Made by a program: the position numbers and the translations under genes | Notes under the pieces: generated by a model | Database searches by the model: none | The model's input: only the letters and a program-made list of their open reading frames with translations | What the model was told of the DNA's origin: nothing | Origin: an uncultured Actinomycetes bacterium | GTDB taxonomy: Bacteria > Actinomycetota > Thermoleophilia > Gaiellales > JAICJC01 | Length of the DNA: 64,000 bases | Reading direction: 5' to 3' | Assembly (NCBI GenBank): GCA_963731515.1 | Contig: CAVSVU010000017.1 | Location: 541,164-605,163, forward strand | In this document: one piece after another, positions 3,878 through 55,229 of the stretch | Layout: each line of letters starts with the position of its first letter | How positions within the stretch are numbered: position 1 is the stretch's first letter

Positions 3878-4924
3878 TCAGCGGGACGAGAGCACGGCGT
3901 CCAGGATCCGCCCGGCCCCGAACCGCACCGGATCGTCCGCCACGAGGCCGGTATCGCGCTCGGTCTGGGCGATGGCGGCGCGGGCCGCCTCCTCGTCGAT
4001 CCGGTTCGTCTTCAGGGCCACCGCGACGACGGGGGCCGGGCGCACGTGCCGCGCCATCCGCACCTGGTCGTCGATCAGCTCGGCCAGGTCGCGGATGGGA
4101 TAGCGGGGGTCGCCGTCGATCAGCTCGCGGCCGGGCTCGTGCACGAACACCATGGCGTGCGGCGCGGAGCCGTGCAGGAGGCCGAGCGTGACGCCCGAGT
4201 AGAACGGGTGGTTGAGCGACCCCTGGCCCTCGATCCAGAGAATGGCGCCGTCGCCGCCGCGGGCGTGGCCCTCGACGACGAGCTGCTCCGCCGCGCCGGC
4301 GACGAAGTCGGAGACGACCTGGTCGACGGCGATCCCCCAGCCGGCGATCGCGATGCCCGTCTGGCCGGTCGGCACGAAGACCGAGCCGAGGCCGCGGCGG
4401 CGCGTCTCGCGGTCGAGCTCGAGGCACACGGTCATCTTCCCGAGGGCGCAGTCCGACCCGACCGTGAGGACGACGTGCGCCTTCGTCTCCAGGTTCGCCC
4501 CGGTCGGGACGTCAAGGCCGTCGGGCACCTTGCGCAGATCGCGCACCGAGACGCCCTTGCTCGCGGCGGCGCCCGCGATCTCGGCATCGTCGGAGAGGAA
4601 CTCGTGCAGGCCGCTCTCGACGTCGAGCCCGAGCTCGATCGAGCGCAGGATGCTGCGCCGGAAGACCGGCGGCAGGTGGCCGCCCGCGGGCGCGACGCCG
4701 ACCAGGAGGGTCGTCGGCCCGAGCGCCATGGCGGCATCGATGTCGGCCACGACCGGGACGTCCGACTCGAGCCCCGGCACGTGCTCGGACGCCGACGTGC
4801 CGGCGCGGCTCGAGTCGACCACGGCGACAGTGGGCGGCTCGGCGTAGCGCATCACGCCGGTGGCCGTCTTCGCGTCCTCGTCGAAGCACCCCTCGGCGAG
4901 GACGGCGTACCGCTTGGTGCTCAC
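3878..4924 (-). CDS. DUF1611 family protein (DgcN-like putative N-acetyltransferase)
   Basis: This is the C-terminal part of the long 3878..6736 ORF. VSTKRYAVLAEG...VGSDCALGKMTV...GQGSLNHPFYSGVTLGLLHG matches DUF1611 as I recall it. GTG 4924 forms a GTGA overlap with the epimerase stop. Confidence 0.7.
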   Translation of the reverse strand: MSTKRYAVLAEGCFDEDAKTATGVMRYAEPPTVAVVDSSRAGTSASEHVPGLESDVPVVADIDAAMALGPTTLLVGVAPAGGHLPPVFRRSILRSIELGLDVESGLHEFLSDDAEIAGAAASKGVSVRDLRKVPDGLDVPTGANLETKAHVVLTVGSDCALGKMTVCLELDRETRRRGLGSVFVPTGQTGIAIAGWGIAVDQVVSDFVAGAAEQLVVEGHARGGDGAILWIEGQGSLNHPFYSGVTLGLLHGSAPHAMVFVHEPGRELIDGDPRYPIRDLAELIDDQVRMARHVRPAPVVAVALKTNRIDEEAARAAIAQTERDTGLVADDPVRFGAGRILDAVLSSR

Positions 4925-6643: not shown

Positions 6644-6716
6644 GCGCCTGTAGCTCAGGGGATAGAGCGTGCGCCTCCGGAGCGCAAGGCCGTAGGTTCG
6701 ATTCCTACCAGGCGCA
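6644..6716 (+). tRNA. tRNA-Arg (anticodon CCG)
   Basis: Hand-folded cloverleaf: acceptor GCGCCTG/CAGGCGC, D stem GCTC/GAGC, anticodon stem TGCGC/GCGCA with loop CTCCGGA, variable AGGCC, T arm GTAGG-TTCGATT-CCTAC, discriminator A. Length 73 nt, no encoded CCA. Confidence 0.93.
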
Positions 6717-6721
6717 TATAT

Positions 6722-6881
6722 CTCTGCCCGCCTCATCGTCGCTCAAATGTGCTCGGCCAGGCAGGATCGGCTCGGGTAGGCCACAAACGGCACCTCGCCC
6801 GCTCTGGCCGCCTTATCGTCGCTCAAATGTGCTCGGCCAGGCGGGATCGGCTCGGTTAGGCGACAAACGGCACCTCGCCCG
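6722..6881. repeat. tandem direct repeat, 2 units of 80 bp (about 92% identical)
   Basis: Unit 1 (6722-6801) and unit 2 (6802-6881) align base for base with about 6 mismatches (ATCGTCGCTCAAATGTGCTCGGCCAGGC.GGATCGGCTCGG.TAGGC.ACAAACGGCACCTCGCCCG). The repeat starts 5 nt after the tRNA. Confidence 0.9.
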
Positions 6882-7141
6882 ATGGATGCCGGCTTGCCGG
6901 AGGGCGAGCCGGCATCCGGTGGATCGCCGACCCCGACGCCGACACCCTCAAACTCCGAGCCGGCGACCACGCCCTCATCATCGAGCGGTGTGAGTACCGC
7001 ATCGACCGCACCACCGGCGTGGTCGAGGTGCGCGACTACACCGACCCGCGCTCGATGCGCTACCAACGCTCTGACCCGCGCCGGCCGGGGCAACCCTTTT
7101 TCTCGCCCTCGTCCGACCTCGACGGCGGCGAGGTCGCCTAG
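6860..7141 (+). other. possible small coding region without canonical start (IRWIADPDADTLKLRAGDHALIIERCEYRIDRTTGVVEVRDYTDPRSMRYQRSD...)
   Basis: The frame is open from 6860 to TAG 7139-7141 with high GC3 and a protein-like residue mix. It has no ATG/GTG/TTG. ATG 6882 lies in another frame. May be a frame-broken or truncated gene. Confidence 0.3.
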
Positions 7142-7358: not shown

Positions 7359-8480
7359 ATGAAACGCCGCATCACCCTCATCACCGCCGCGGTGGTCGCC
7401 GCTTGCGCGGTGCTCCCATCGGTCGCCTCGGCGGCCACCACCTCGACGCTCACCGCCTCGCCGGCCTCGGTCGACTTCGGCACCAGGTCGACCACCGCAC
7501 CCACCGGCCACTCGGCCACCGTGACCAACACCGGTCACCAACCCGGTGCGCTCACCACCGCTCACCTCCGACCCGGCGGCGGTCGCCATGCCGTTCACCA
7601 CGTGCGTGACACCTGCTCGGGCCGCCTCATCGCCGGCCGGCGCGACCTGCAAGCTTCGGGGTCTACGTTCGACGCCGGTTGGGCTCGGCTACGGGCCATA
7701 TGCACGGTGCCCTCACCATGCACCGGCACCGATTGACCGTGACCGCCGAGCGACACGGCCTACGTCAGCGTGCCCCTCACCGGCACGGCGGTCGACCGCC
7801 CTGCCGGTCATGCACCTCGCGTCGAGCGCGGTGAGCCGGGCGAGCTTCTACCCGCTCGTGCAAGACCGCTACCTCGACGTGACCCGCTACTCGGCGAGCT
7901 TCACCGAGCCGGCCACCGGCAAGGTGCAGGTGCTCAACTCGGTCGGCCGCGTGGTCAAGGCCTGGCCGTTCACCAACTCGCACCTCGGTCGCCGAGGATT
8001 GGCGCGGCCGCTCGACGCTCGGCACCAAGGTCAAGCCGGGCACCTACCGCTTCCGGGTCATCGCTCACGGCGTCGCCGGCACGAGCACCGGCTCGGTCTC
8101 GGGCGGCATCCGCTCGACGGTGGTACGCACCGGATGGCGAGCCGTGCATCACGCCATCGACCGCACCGGCGTCAACACCACGAGCCGGCACCGCTCGCTC
8201 ATCGTGCTTCTTCGACACGTGGGACTGGCCGACGCTTGAGCTTGACTCGTGGGGCGGCACCTGCACCGCCACGTGGCGGGTCGGCGTGCCGAACAACGCC
8301 TACGGGGTGAGCTACTCGATGCGCGCCAACCGCGACGCCGGGGCCGACCTACATGGCCCGAAGACCCACACCGCGGTGCGCACCTCTTGGGGCGTGCTCT
8401 TCACCGCCTCGACCGGCGATTGGGCCGCGCTCGACGTGCACGGGGTGCATGTCGGCTACTGGACCAAGCACCGCATCTAG
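7359..8480 (+). pseudogene. secreted Ig-like repeat protein (ASH/HYDIN-like plus FlgD-Ig-like domains), at least 5 frame breaks
   Basis: A good RBS (CAGGAGGG) precedes ATG 7359 with signal peptide MKRRITLITAAVVAACAVLPSVASA. Coding signal then moves between frames: VPLTGTAV (frame 0), SFYPLVQDRYLDVTRYSASFTEPATGKVQVLNSVGRVVKAW (frame 1), WRGRSTLGTKVKPGTYRFRVIAHG (frame 2), FFDTWDWPTLELDSWGG...YWTKHRI (frame 0). Confidence 0.7.
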
Positions 8481-8538
8481 CGAAACGGGGCACAACGCCC
8501 CGTCGGCGAGACCTGGCCGCCTCGCCCTGATGAGCTAG
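8477..8538 (+). ncRNA. hammerhead self-cleaving ribozyme motif, type II topology (stem II open); predicted cleavage between 8504 and 8505
   Basis: CUAGC|GAA|ACGGGGC-ACAAC-GCCCCGU|C|GGCGAG-ACCUGGCCGC-CUCGCC|CUGAUGA|GCUAG. The full conserved core is present: CUGAUGA, GAA, A15.1-U16.1, the GUC triplet and G10.1-C11.1. There are three compatible helices. Confidence 0.8.
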
Positions 8539-8556
8539 GCCATACACCCACGACCC
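8484..8556 (+). repeat. 73-nt repeat copy 1 (hammerhead stems III and I, CUGAUGA, GGCCAUACACCCACGACCC tail)
   Basis: Identical to 9121-9192 except for one extra A (8537). Confidence 0.9.
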
Positions 8557-44290: not shown

Positions 44291-48141
<3,851 letters not shown>

Positions 48142-48145
<4 letters not shown>

Positions 48146-49179
48146 AGGAGCAGCATTGCATCGCCGAAGCTGTAGAAGCGGTACTCCTCCGCGACTGCGG
48201 TGCGGTAGAGGTCGCGGATCGCGTCCGTCCCGGCGAACGCCATCACCAGCGCGAGCAGCGTCGAGCGGGGCAGGTGGAAGTTCGTGACGAGCCCGCCCAC
48301 GGCCGCGAACCGGTGCCCCGGCTCGATCAGGAGGCGCGTCCGGCCCTCGAGCGGGCCGCGCTCCGCTCCGCCCCACACCGTCTCCAGCACGCGCACGGTC
48401 GTCGTCCCGACGGCGACGATGCGGCGGCCGGCCGAGAGGGCCGCGTCGATCGCGTCCGCGGCCGCGGGGGTGACGGCGTACGCCTCGCTGTGCATCGGGT
48501 GGTCGTCGAGGTCGGCCTCGGTCACCGGGCGGAACGTGTCGAGGCCGACGCCGAGGGTCACCTCCACCACCTCGTGGCGGGCGCGGAGCCGTTCGAGCAG
48601 CTCGGGGGTGAAGTGCAGGCCGGCCGTCGGCGCCGCCGCCGAGCCGGGATGGCGGGCGTAGACCGTCTGGTAGCGCTGTGGATCGGCCGGCTGCTCGTGG
48701 ATGTAGGGCGGGAGCGGCATCTCCCCCACCTTCTCCAGGGCGGCCGCGATGGGGACTGTCCCCGCTTGATCGGGGACGGTCCCCGTGACGTGCGGCCTGA
48801 CGATCACCCGGCCCTCGTCGAGGTGGCGCTCGATCGTGATCGCGAGCTCTCCGGCCGTGACCGTCTCGCCGTCGCGGAGGCGCCGCGCCGGCCGCGCGAG
48901 CGCCTCCCAGCGTCCGTCCGGCTGCGGCTCGAGCAGCAGCACCTCGGCTGCTCCCCCGGTCTCGCGCCGGGCGCGCACGCGCACGGGCAGGACGCGGGTG
49001 TCGTTCAGCACCACGAGGTCGTCGGGCGCGAGCTCGTCCAGGAGGTCGCCGAACCGGCGGTGGCGGAGGGCGCCCGTCGCCCGGTCGTACACGAGCAGCC
49101 GGGCGCTGTCGCGCGGCTCGGCCGCCGTCTGGGCGATCAGCCCGGGCGGGAGGTCGTAGTCGAGGTCGTCGGTGCGCAC
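48142..49179 (-). CDS. queA: S-adenosylmethionine:tRNA ribosyltransferase-isomerase
   Basis: [17 protein letters not shown]...PLPPYI...[13 protein letters not shown]...[10 protein letters not shown]...[11 protein letters not shown] are QueA hallmarks. GTGA overlap with the tgt start. Confidence 0.9.
48751..48784. repeat. double palindrome GGGGACTGTCCCC-GCTTGATC-GGGGACGGTCCCC inside queA
   Basis: Same element type as 35165-35197. On the coding (minus) strand it is read in frame as [13 protein letters not shown]. Confidence 0.85.
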
Positions 49180-49628
49180 CGGATGACGTAGCGGTCCCGC
49201 GCAGGGCCGGGGACGATGTTCAGGTGGTCGGGCTGGATCCGGAACGGCGCCTGGACGCCCGAGACGAAGAGCTCCGCCGGGCCGGCCAGGTACCAGCGCC
49301 GGCGCCGCTCGACGGCCCGGATGTGGACATGGCCGTTGCGCCACGAGCCGGTTGCCGTGAAGTCGAGCCGCGCGCTCCCCGTCCCGTCGGCGTTCTGGAC
49401 GACCGGCCCCGTGACGGTGAATCCGAACCCGGTCACGACTCCGAGCTCCTGACGGACGGTGGCGTTCAGGCGCAGGCACGTCGCCGACACCTTGAAGGCC
49501 GGGCCTTTCGACGCCCGCTCGATCGCCGCGATGCCGATCGCGGCCGACGCCGCCAGCGCGAGCGCGGCGCCGGCAACGAGGGGGATCCAGGGGCGTGCAC
49601 GCGCATAGGCCGCACGGAGACGCTGCAT
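49137..49628 (-). CDS. hypothetical membrane-anchored protein (163 aa)
   Basis: ATG 49628 gives [36 protein letters not shown] as an anchor, followed by a beta-rich soluble part. It overlaps the queA start by 43 nt. No domain recognised. Confidence 0.45.
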
Positions 49629-49654
49629 CGCCGCAATTAGAGCATGCGGGATCC

Positions 49655-49860
49655 AGATGGTTGAGCGGTAACCCCCGTGATGTCCTGGGCGGCGAGAACC
49701 GAGCAGCGCGAGGACGCAGGGAGCGTTCATATTGGGCCGAAATATGGGCGCGACCGAGGACGCGGCGATGCGACGGTTCGCAGTCGCAGCTCCACCAGCG
49801 AATCGAACCCCCGCCAGCAGCCTGACGTCCAGGCGCGCGCGGGTTACCGCTCAACCATCT
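49655..49860. repeat. 206-bp element bounded by perfect 20-bp inverted repeats (AGATGGTTGAGCGGTAACCC / GGGTTACCGCTCAACCATCT); MITE-like or structured RNA
   Basis: Left arm is 49655-49674 and right arm 49841-49860. The interior has further helices (GAUGUC/GACGUC, CUGGGCGG/CCGCCAG, an 11-bp hairpin at 49722-49750 and UGCGAC/GUCGCA). The right arm overlaps the ruvB stop codon by 2 nt. Confidence 0.7.
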
Positions 49861-50887
49861 AAAAGAGGCGCGGGTCGCGGGCCGGGGCCGGCAGGCCGAG
49901 ATGCGCGTATCCGGCCGGCGTCACGACCCGTCCACGCGGCGTCCGCTGGAGCAGGCCGAGCTGGAGCAGGTAGGGCTCGTAGACGTCTTCGAGCGTGTCC
50001 GTCTCCTCGCCGATCGCCACGGCGAGCGTGGAGAGGCCGACCGGGCCGCCGCTGAAGCGCTCGGCGATGGCGCGCAGGATCTCGCGGTCGATCCGCTCCA
50101 GCCCGGCGCCGTCGACCTCGAAGAGCTCGAGCGCCTCGACGGCGATCGCATGCGTGATCTCGCCGTCGTGCCGCACCTGGGCGAAGTCGCGCACCCGGCG
50201 CAGGATCCGGTTCGCGACCCGTGGCGTGCCCCGCGAGCGGCGGGCGACCTCCTCGGTGCCGCCCTCGTCGATGCGCACGCCGAGGAGCCGGGCGGAGCGC
50301 TGCACGATGCGGGCGATCTCGGCCACGCCGTAGTAGTCGAGGCGGTGGGTGATCCCGAAGCGGTCGCGCAGCGGCGTCGTCAGGAGCCCGGTGCGCGTGG
50401 TCGCGCCGACGAGGGTGAACGGCTTCAGCTCCAGGCGCAGCGAGTGCGCCCCCGGGCCCTGGCCGATGACGATGTCGATGCAGCCGTCCTCCATCGCGGG
50501 GTAGAGCAGCTCCTCGATCGCGCGGTTCAGCCGGTGGATCTCGTCGATGAAGAGGACGTCGTCGGCCTCGAGCGCGGTCAGGATCGAGGCCATGTCGGCC
50601 TTCCGGTCGATGGCCGGGCCGGACATGATGCGCAGCGAGGAGCCCATCTCGGCGGCGATGATCCCGGCCAGCGAGGTCTTGCCCAGGCCGGGCGGGCCGG
50701 CCAGCAGCACGTGCTCGCACGGCTCGCCGCGGGCGCGGGCGGCCTCGAGGAAGATCGTGAGCTGCTCCTTCACCTGCTCCTGGCCGACGAACTCGGACAG
50801 GGTGCGCGGACGCAGCGAGCGGTCGAACTCCTCCTCGCCGGGGGCCAGGAACGCGTCGGGGATCCGGGGGCCGGCCTCGGCGCTCAT
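49859..50887 (-). CDS. ruvB: Holliday junction branch migration helicase RuvB
   Basis: 342 aa with Walker [10 protein letters not shown], Walker [12 protein letters not shown] and other RuvB-specific blocks. Confidence 0.95.
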
Positions 50888-55155: not shown

Positions 55156-55229
55156 GGGGGTGTAGCTCAGCCGGTCAGAGCAGCGGACTCATAATCTGTT
55201 GGTCGCTGGTTCGAATCCAGCCGCCCCCA
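55156..55229 (+). tRNA. tRNA with CAU anticodon; resembles tRNA-Ile2 (lysidine type), elongator tRNA-Met not excluded
   Basis: Cloverleaf: GGGGGTG/CGCCCCC acceptor, GCTC/GAGC D stem, loop CTCATAA, T arm GCTGG-TTCGAAT-CCAGC. GACTCATAATC...TTGGTCGCTGGTTC resembles E. coli ileX as I remember it. Confidence 0.88.

Follow-up and report, generated by a model that had tools for sequence, protein, structure and literature searches.

The stretch of DNA analyzed here, which we call the window, comprises 64,000 nucleotides of a contig from an uncultured bacterium of the order Gaiellales, whose genome has a G+C content of 72%. On its minus strand, the genes pdxT, yebC, ruvC, ruvA, and ruvB are followed by a 206-bp element with terminal inverted repeats, an open reading frame (ORF) for a Coa1-like membrane protein, queA, tgt, and secDF. 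The ruvB gene (49859–50887, minus strand) has an intact C-terminus (...DPRLF), and its TAG stop codon (49859–49861, minus strand) shares two bases with the end of the right arm of the element, which thus lies against the ruvB stop as a preliminary description of this DNA had noted. The same description took queA for the next gene after ruvB; the Coa1-like ORF (163 aa, 49137–49626, minus strand, ATG at 49626) intervenes, and queA follows it. Homologs of this ORF are 162–163 aa long, and the name Coa1 is given to them by several sources. The distance between ruvB and the Coa1-like gene is 232 nt in the window, versus about 24 nt without the insertion. Farther along the minus strand, tgt (46993–48376) is split into 2 ORFs that overlap, one of 306 aa and one of 296 aa, whereas its relatives encode a single product of ~383 aa; a frameshift or a misassembly in the window may be the cause.

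The element (49655–49860) starts with AGAT and ends with ATCT, and its extent, as given in the preliminary description, is supported by the repeat, the score of covariance model R1, and its absence from relatives. As a DNA element it has no inherent strand; we use "+" for the strand with the more stable fold, which is the same one in every copy. Model R1 scored the window element at 220.8 bits on the + strand and at 42 bits on the − strand. The left (49655–49677) and right (49838–49860) terminal inverted repeats, located with a repeat finder, are 23 nt long and 96% complementary, with one mismatch. Their outer 20 nt pair perfectly (20/20 bases in the window copy), that is to say, AGATGGTTGAGCGGTAACCC at 49655–49674 has its exact reverse complement at 49841–49860. 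The perfect 20-bp repeats of the preliminary description are therefore real: with up to 3 mismatches allowed, the 20-mer occurs in the window only at the two arm positions, and 0 occurrences are expected from 100 dinucleotide-preserving shuffles. The end type of the element is AGATGGTTGA. The element is present as a single copy in the 64 kb, and its GC content (0.62–0.67) is lower than that of the flanks (about 0.72–0.78), as had been remarked earlier. A motif reported as duplicated inside it, CGAGGACGC, was recovered by the repeat finder and is conserved across the family described below.

Between the terminal repeats, the + strand carries (i) a left subterminal stem (CGTGATGTCCTGGGCGGC, 49678–49695), which pairs with 49783–49787 and 49829–49839 and is 84% conserved among copies; (ii) loop A (GCGCGAGGACGCAGGGAG, 49706–49723), whose mean pairwise identity of 97% is the highest in the family; (iii) an apical hairpin (GCGUUCAUAUU-GGGCCGA-AAUAUGGGCGC, 49722–49750) found by folding, which corresponds to helix 6 of the covariation analysis, where 6 pairs have changed on both sides; (iv) loop B (GACCGAGGACGC, 49752–49763), which is the second copy of the CGAGGACGC motif; and (v) a variable segment (49789–49828) with a mean pairwise identity of 53%. 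The apical hairpin contains 2 U.G pairs on the + strand and C.A mismatches at the same positions on the − strand.

Empty and filled insertion sites

Some 20 related Gaiellales loci have no element between the ruvB stop codon and the Coa1-like ORF, only a spacer of ~24 nt. The genomes nearest to the window, twelve in number (L002–L013, RuvB 87–93% identical), have the ruvB stop within a few bases of the far-side flank and no trace of the repeat. The RuvB comparison assigns the window to the Gaiellales, and the best RuvB matches are soil metagenome-assembled genomes with 91–93% identity. The metagenome contigs L084–L095, whose Coa1-like proteins are 90–92% identical to that of the window, likewise have the ~24-nt spacer and lack the element. 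Comparison of the spacer in relatives, which the preliminary description had proposed, thus separates a filled site in the window from empty sites elsewhere. The empty ruvB site of L003 reads TTCTAG followed by CCGCCGCATGC (TTCTAG followed by CCGCCGCATGCTCTAATTG in an excerpt of different length), and the filled site of the window reads TTTTAG[ATGG...CCAT]CTGGATCCCGCATGC (in another excerpt, TTTTAG[ATGG...CCAT]CTGGATCCCGCATGCTCTAATTG), so that the window has 4 nt extra outside the ATGG...CCAT core relative to L003.

A second pair of empty and filled sites lies upstream of secD. The empty sites of L015, L016, and L020 read cgaCTAGactttcc (other excerpt, cgctcgaCTAGactttcc), and the filled sites of L019 and L013 read CGACCAG[ ATGATCGG...CCGATCAT ]CTAGACTTTCC. 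One CTAG in the empty tgt/secD site corresponds to two in the filled site, the left one of which has since become CCAG. The window itself has a CTAG in the last codons of tgt (47009–47012; CCATCTAGACTTCC), which is the same conserved site as is filled in L019 and L013; in the window it is empty. As judged from the alignment of filled with empty orthologous sites, the element in the window is an insertion.

The same two comparisons, read at the sequence level, give TA or CTAG as the target-site duplication. CTAG is a palindrome, and a 2-bp and a 4-bp duplication therefore produce the same junction: a duplicated TA with element ends G...C is equivalent to a duplicated CTAG with element ends ATG...CAT. 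A 6-bp NCTAGN duplication was excluded by the tgt/secD comparison. The preliminary description had seen no target-site duplication; a duplicated CTAG is present, decayed to TTAG...CTGG in the window copy. Its Coa1-side target copy (49653–49656), recognized from filled versus empty sites and from the flank consensus, is a decayed CTAG that reads CCAG on the + strand (CTGG on the − strand), and under the 2-bp model the Coa1-side duplicate is CA at 49654–49655. The ruvB-side target copy (49859–49862) reads CTAA on the + strand (TTAG on the − strand), and the TAG within it is the ruvB stop codon. In the relatives L003, L007, L008, and L011, ruvB ends with TTC TAG, which was the target in the window; the C of the ruvB-side CTAG has since mutated to T, a synonymous substitution (TTC to TTT). 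The ruvB-side copy kept its TAG because this is the stop codon of ruvB, and the other copy, being unconstrained, drifted to CTGG.

A dispersed family at CTAG sites

A family search with BLAST, nhmmer, and covariance model R1 (built from four copies) over about 0.9 Mb of related Gaiellales DNA revealed 7 copies, which represent 6 independent insertions at 5 distinct sites in at least 5 genomes; the related elements are present in independent NCBI and ENA assemblies. Full-length copies are mutually 63–79% identical, and copies measure 200–206 bp, except for that of L036, which measures 334 bp owing to nested inserts. The copy of L014 (1169–1368) directly follows the yebC stop codon (GGC TAG followed by ATGG). 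L019 has two copies in 7 kb, L019a (4033–4233) being located 3 nt past the ruvB TGA in the opposite orientation and L019b (6756–6955) in the last codons of tgt. The copy of L013 (5036–5158) is the ortholog of L019b with its central arm deleted, and the copy of L036 (4024–4357) lies at the ruvB TAG and has two nested 57-nt inserts and one mutated end. One further copy, that of L097 (278–483), came from ~0.2 Mb of DNA reached through homologs of the Coa1-like protein; it is located 2 nt past the TAG of another gene.

The copies differ in their state of preservation. Over the first 18–20 bp, the ends of L014, L019a, L019b, and L097 are intact with 0–1 terminal mismatches; those of L013 have 3 mismatches, and those of L036 have diverged too. 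In L013, 84 model positions of the central arm have been lost together with both loops, both ends have been kept, and three terminal pairs have turned into G.U on the same strand as is favored elsewhere. The two inserts of L036 (4119–4176 and 4251–4306) repeat, in direct orientation, a 57-nt double-hairpin module (GCAAGGC-N4-GCCTTGC ... GATCTGCGATYACGCAGATC), of which no further copy was found in roughly 0.7 Mb of related DNA. One site occurs in three states in related contigs: L097 (275–485) has the full element, L098 (782–813) has a 33-nt GC-rich stretch that starts with the same CGAGA as the element, and L096 (~920–930) has 5 nt only. A deletion within the element might have left the stretch in L098, but the similarity is too short to tell.

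The flank consensus of the 6 insertions is C-T-A-G on both sides, with the outer left C present in 6/6. L014 has a perfect CTAG on both flanks and is the sole intact duplication among the copies; in each of the others at least one flanking CTAG is altered, mostly by one base. All 6 insertions are located at, or a few bases from, the 3' end of a gene. The tetranucleotide is ten-fold depleted in the 64-kb window (15 CTAGs seen versus 160 expected from base composition), TA is about two-fold under-represented (555 versus 1222 expected), and at least 9 of the 15 window CTAGs end long, high-GC3 ORFs. The position of the element against a stop codon thus follows from the rarity of CTAG, most surviving instances of which consist of a C and a TAG stop. 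In L019 and L013, the target CTAG lies 15 nt inside tgt (ACT AGA), and the element's own AGA TGA ends the tgt protein five codons early; tgt and secD, which overlap in relatives, are separated by the element in these two.

Beyond this set, the exact 20-mer had 0 matches in 185,579 GTDB representative genomes and one match in metagenomes, to a single arm on the AT-rich contig L001, which we judged to be chance because nothing similar extends beyond about 24 nt. Two matches of a conserved-core 17-mer in viral contigs were also judged to be chance, their flanks being dissimilar, and blastn found no plasmid sequence that matched the element. No open frame is common to all copies, since each frame is broken somewhere by an indel; the concatenated six-frame translation, compared with 5.8 billion predicted proteins to catch spurious ORFs annotated on other copies, gave no match and no protein family. 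A search for an autonomous partner in the window and the ~0.9 Mb of loci, with AGAT-started 18-mers having an inverted partner within 3.5 kb, found none; when inverted repeats of exact 14-mers up to 5 kb apart were sought in the same DNA, only the copies of the family and chance pairs inside genes came up.

Fold and strand asymmetry

The element folds far better than shuffled sequences on either strand, with −109.1 kcal/mol (z −6.1) on the + strand and −108.3 kcal/mol (z −4.3) on the − strand. In the family consensus, a 20-bp terminal stem leads into the conserved subterminal stem and on to a three-way junction. The long arm of this junction is broken by internal loops and ends in the apical hairpin; its other arm is the variable segment. 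The inner pairing of the consensus runs through CGUG/CGCG, UG/CG, and CCUGG/CCAGG to the three-way junction. Of the pairings in the preliminary description, the hairpin at 49722–49750 is borne out by the compensatory changes in helix 6; the second hairpin (UGCGAC..GUCGCA) and the helix extensions GAUGUC/GACGUC and CUGGGCGG/CCGCCAG can form in the window copy and are absent from the consensus.

The consensus pairing was evaluated in a model-fitted alignment of six sequences only, all of them related, in which 96.6% of the cells are paired and 26 of the 64 pairs have changed on both sides. None of 500 shuffles (0/500) reaches any of five pairing measures, and 3' partners that were slid along the alignment pair only at 31–40%. 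Covariation in the terminal stem is also expected if both ends merely must match a transposase; compensatory changes are found in the internal helices 3 and 6 as well, beyond the terminal repeat. Few parts of the element vary more from copy to copy than the terminal repeats, with 60–65% identity and three sequence types that share only AGAT, and the two arms of each intact-ended full-length copy (window, L014, both copies of L019, and L097) are complementary with 0–1 mismatch. By comparison, loop A (GCGCAAGGACGCAGGGAG) is 97% conserved.

The exceptions to Watson–Crick pairing favor one strand. There are 22 G.U cells on the window + strand versus 2 A.C cells (which are G.U on the other strand), a count that is biased because the structure was derived on the + strand and several G.U pairs are common by descent; the ratio is about 10 to 2 when pairs are defined by Watson–Crick majority. 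The minimum free energy is lower on the + strand in 6/6 copies, by 1.5–10.6 kcal/mol, and RNAalifold gave −105 kcal/mol for the + strand and −86 kcal/mol for the other strand. Because resident copies decay after insertion (the arm lost in L013, the interruption in L036), any constraint seems to act on still-mobile lineages and not on resident copies. These features hint that the folded single strand matters for propagation, and they give no evidence of a host RNA gene.

Probable identity of the element and possible consequences for the host

Known RNA classes gained no support as an identity of the element. It had no Rfam match at E up to 10, and a scan of the whole window at gathering thresholds placed nothing on it; L014, both L019 copies, and L036 (three loci, E up to 5) had no match either, so that the Rfam scans covered five of the seven copies. 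ARAGORN found tRNA-Arg at 6644 and tRNA-Met at 55156 as the only such genes in the window, and no tRNA or tmRNA in the element. The tRNA-like fragments of the preliminary description are thus unsupported: the T-loop-like motif GGGGGUUCGAUUC lies in the variable segment, the least conserved of the family at 53% identity, and a tRNA-like cloverleaf was rejected because it has no ARAGORN match and no Rfam tRNA match at E up to 10, and because the motif is not conserved. The long-stem small RNA proposed there (6S-like or Y-RNA-like with a tRNA mimic) fares no better, since neither 6S RNA, Y RNA, nor any other Rfam family matched the five copies scanned. A sigma-70-like promoter was not found at the element. 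A retron (msr-msd), which has a1/a2 inverted repeats next to a reverse transcriptase gene, was also considered and rejected: inverted repeats are present, but the neighbors are ruvB and the Coa1-like ORF, and other copies lie beside yebC, tgt, and secD.

The element is very probably a non-coding, non-autonomous DNA transposon (MITE) of roughly 200 bp, belonging to the Gaiellales (class Thermoleophilia, Actinomycetota); it forms a new MITE family of a well-known kind and is not a new RNA gene. Bacterial MITEs are usually under 200 bp and up to about 400 bp long and contain no transposase gene (PMC3184786), and the members of this family are likewise small and without a transposase gene. They also have terminal inverted repeats, a flanking duplication, and non-homologous sites with empty orthologs. 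At the level of sequence, the comparisons above show insertion, terminal inverted repeats, several unrelated sites, a duplicated CTAG, and decay, and the MITE-type element that the preliminary description listed among its candidates is the identity that the empty sites and the related copies at other loci bear out. The decay after insertion (arm loss in L013, nested inserts and a mutated end in L036) is typical of MITEs. Counting against the MITE reading, the window and the ~0.9 Mb of loci yielded no autonomous element with the same ends, the duplication is intact in L014 only, and the terminal repeats vary (60–65%) while an internal loop is 97% conserved, unlike in classical MITEs. A DDE transposase supplied in trans would cut the element out and paste it into CTAG, and insertion would duplicate either the central TA in the manner of IS630 or all four bases in the manner of IS5-type elements.

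It is possible, if rather unlikely, that the element is mobile and that what selection keeps is one folded single strand (RNA or single-stranded DNA of the window + strand). It would then be either a structured non-coding RNA gene that uses the MITE to spread or a transposition intermediate that has to fold. The terminal stem co-varies freely and two internal loops are nearly invariant; these loops (GCGCAAGGACGCAGGGAG and GACCGAGGACGC) would bind a protein or make tertiary contacts. The 96.6% pairing with 26 double-changed pairs that shuffled and slid controls did not reproduce, the co-variation of internal helices 3 and 6, the concerted change of the arms, the 22 versus 2 wobble asymmetry, the lower energy of the + strand, and the high conservation of loop A relative to the terminal repeats argue for such selection. 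However, no Rfam match was found in the copies scanned and no promoter-like site at the element, and the orientation to the upstream gene is sense in 3 insertions and antisense in 3, so that read-through would yield the favored strand only half the time. The decay of copies, with L013 lacking the central arm and both loops and L036 interrupted, argues in the same direction, as do the strand bias in deriving the structure and the small set of six related sequences. Wobble asymmetry and concerted arm change are equally what a folded single-strand intermediate would leave behind if the element were moved by a strand-specific enzyme acting on hairpin single-stranded DNA (an HUH/Y1 transposase as in IS200/IS605 or the REP-associated RAYT, for which background is given in PMC3184786, or an attC-type recombinase) and not by a DDE transposase. 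We consider this improbable, because the CTAG duplication occurs in two empty/filled pairs, no 4–5-nt target is conserved on one side only, and the element contains no GTTRRRY-type attC core. Elements of the IS200/IS605 and REP types insert 3' of a fixed tetra- or pentanucleotide and are not known to carry long terminal inverted repeats or to duplicate their target; assignment of the element to this type was rejected because it has both a long terminal repeat and the CTAG duplication, without a one-sided conserved target.

The great stability of the hairpin on the ruvB sense strand (−108 kcal/mol, z −4.3) and its position inside an operon could also suggest a host cis-acting hairpin that evolved in place, whether to end transcription or be cut by an RNase (the third candidate of the preliminary description being a terminator or processing site) or to stabilize the mRNA. 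This origin is very improbable: it is contradicted by the empty sites, the closest relatives having no element here, and members of the family are found beside other genes as well, some in the sense and some in the antisense direction of the gene upstream. Moreover, no U-tract follows the stem; the T-run on the ruvB strand precedes it, and no terminator-like site was found on either strand between 49300 and 50200. A fortuitous palindrome or an assembly artifact, as the single copy in the window might suggest, has a negligible probability and was excluded, with 0 occurrences expected in shuffles and homologous copies in the independent NCBI and ENA assemblies.

Among known elements, ERIC and Correia are imperfect palindromes of 100–200 bp with a TA-type duplication, which lie in transcription units in both orientations, form stable RNA hairpins, and have known effects on mRNA. 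The Gaiellales MITE resembles these elements of Enterobacteria and Neisseria in palindrome size, TA-type duplication, location within operons, and occurrence in both orientations. It differs from them in having no sequence similarity (Rfam and plasmid BLAST were empty), in its host order, which is uncultured, high-GC, and actinobacterial, and in its strict CTAG target, which places copies at stop codons. For IS5-type elements (IS5/IS427 groups), the target is a YTAR tetranucleotide, of which CTAG is one, and the duplication is 4 bp long; the junctions fit this family equally well, a likeness that lies in target and duplication alone, the ends of the Gaiellales element being ATGG... or GATGG.... 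IS630 duplicates TA within CTAG (PMC2577343, Table 1). Like IS630/Tc1-mariner-derived MITEs, the present elements are small and non-coding, have terminal inverted repeats, form one long hairpin, have junctions that fit insertion at the TA in CTAG, and lie between genes or at gene ends. In contrast to those MITEs, whose terminal repeats normally match the parent IS, the terminal repeats of the Gaiellales copies vary, and a partner with matching ends was not found in the window or the ~0.9 Mb of loci. The cyanobacterial MITE Nezha, which has a stable predicted hairpin, offers a precedent for the approach used here, as its mobility was inferred from filled versus empty orthologous sites (PMC3184786). 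By contrast with the Gaiellales element, for which no such IS partner was found, Nezha shares terminal and direct repeats with ISNpu3 (PMC3184786). General descriptions of bacterial MITEs are available (PMC3184786, PMC2229807), and our literature search found no described transposable-element family for Gaiellales.

The family provides a well-delimited mobile element for the Gaiellales, an abundant but almost uncultured soil lineage, and its strict CTAG target in a genome of 72% G+C steers insertions to stop codons and operon junctions. An inserted copy can bring a stop codon with it, which is what happened to tgt in L019 and L013, and can break the translational coupling between genes. The stable hairpin of the window copy (about −108 kcal/mol), now predicted to lie in a presumed ruvCAB-coa1-queA-tgt-secDF transcript, may alter the processing or stability of that transcript; MITE hairpins can affect host transcripts in these ways in other bacteria (PMC3184786). 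The element can also mislead gene callers. An ATG within it (49728–49730) is in frame with the Coa1-like gene and yields a 197-aa ORF (49137–49730, minus strand); because homologs are 162–163 aa long, the 34-aa N-terminal extension, which consists of MITE sequence, is probably an annotation trap. If the strand-specific fold and the loops hold, the family would be a case for studying what a MITE must conserve besides its terminal repeat to stay mobile.

In addition, the Rfam scan of the window gave a Hammerhead_II match at 8478–8544 (+ strand) with 39.1 bits versus a gathering score of 37. The match starts right after the TAG stop, within a CTAG, of an ORF at 7770–8480, and contains CGAAAC...CUGAUGAG, followed by a GC-rich hairpin. 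Because tRNA-Arg (6644–6716) is located about 1.8 kb upstream, the match may lie inside an integrated element.
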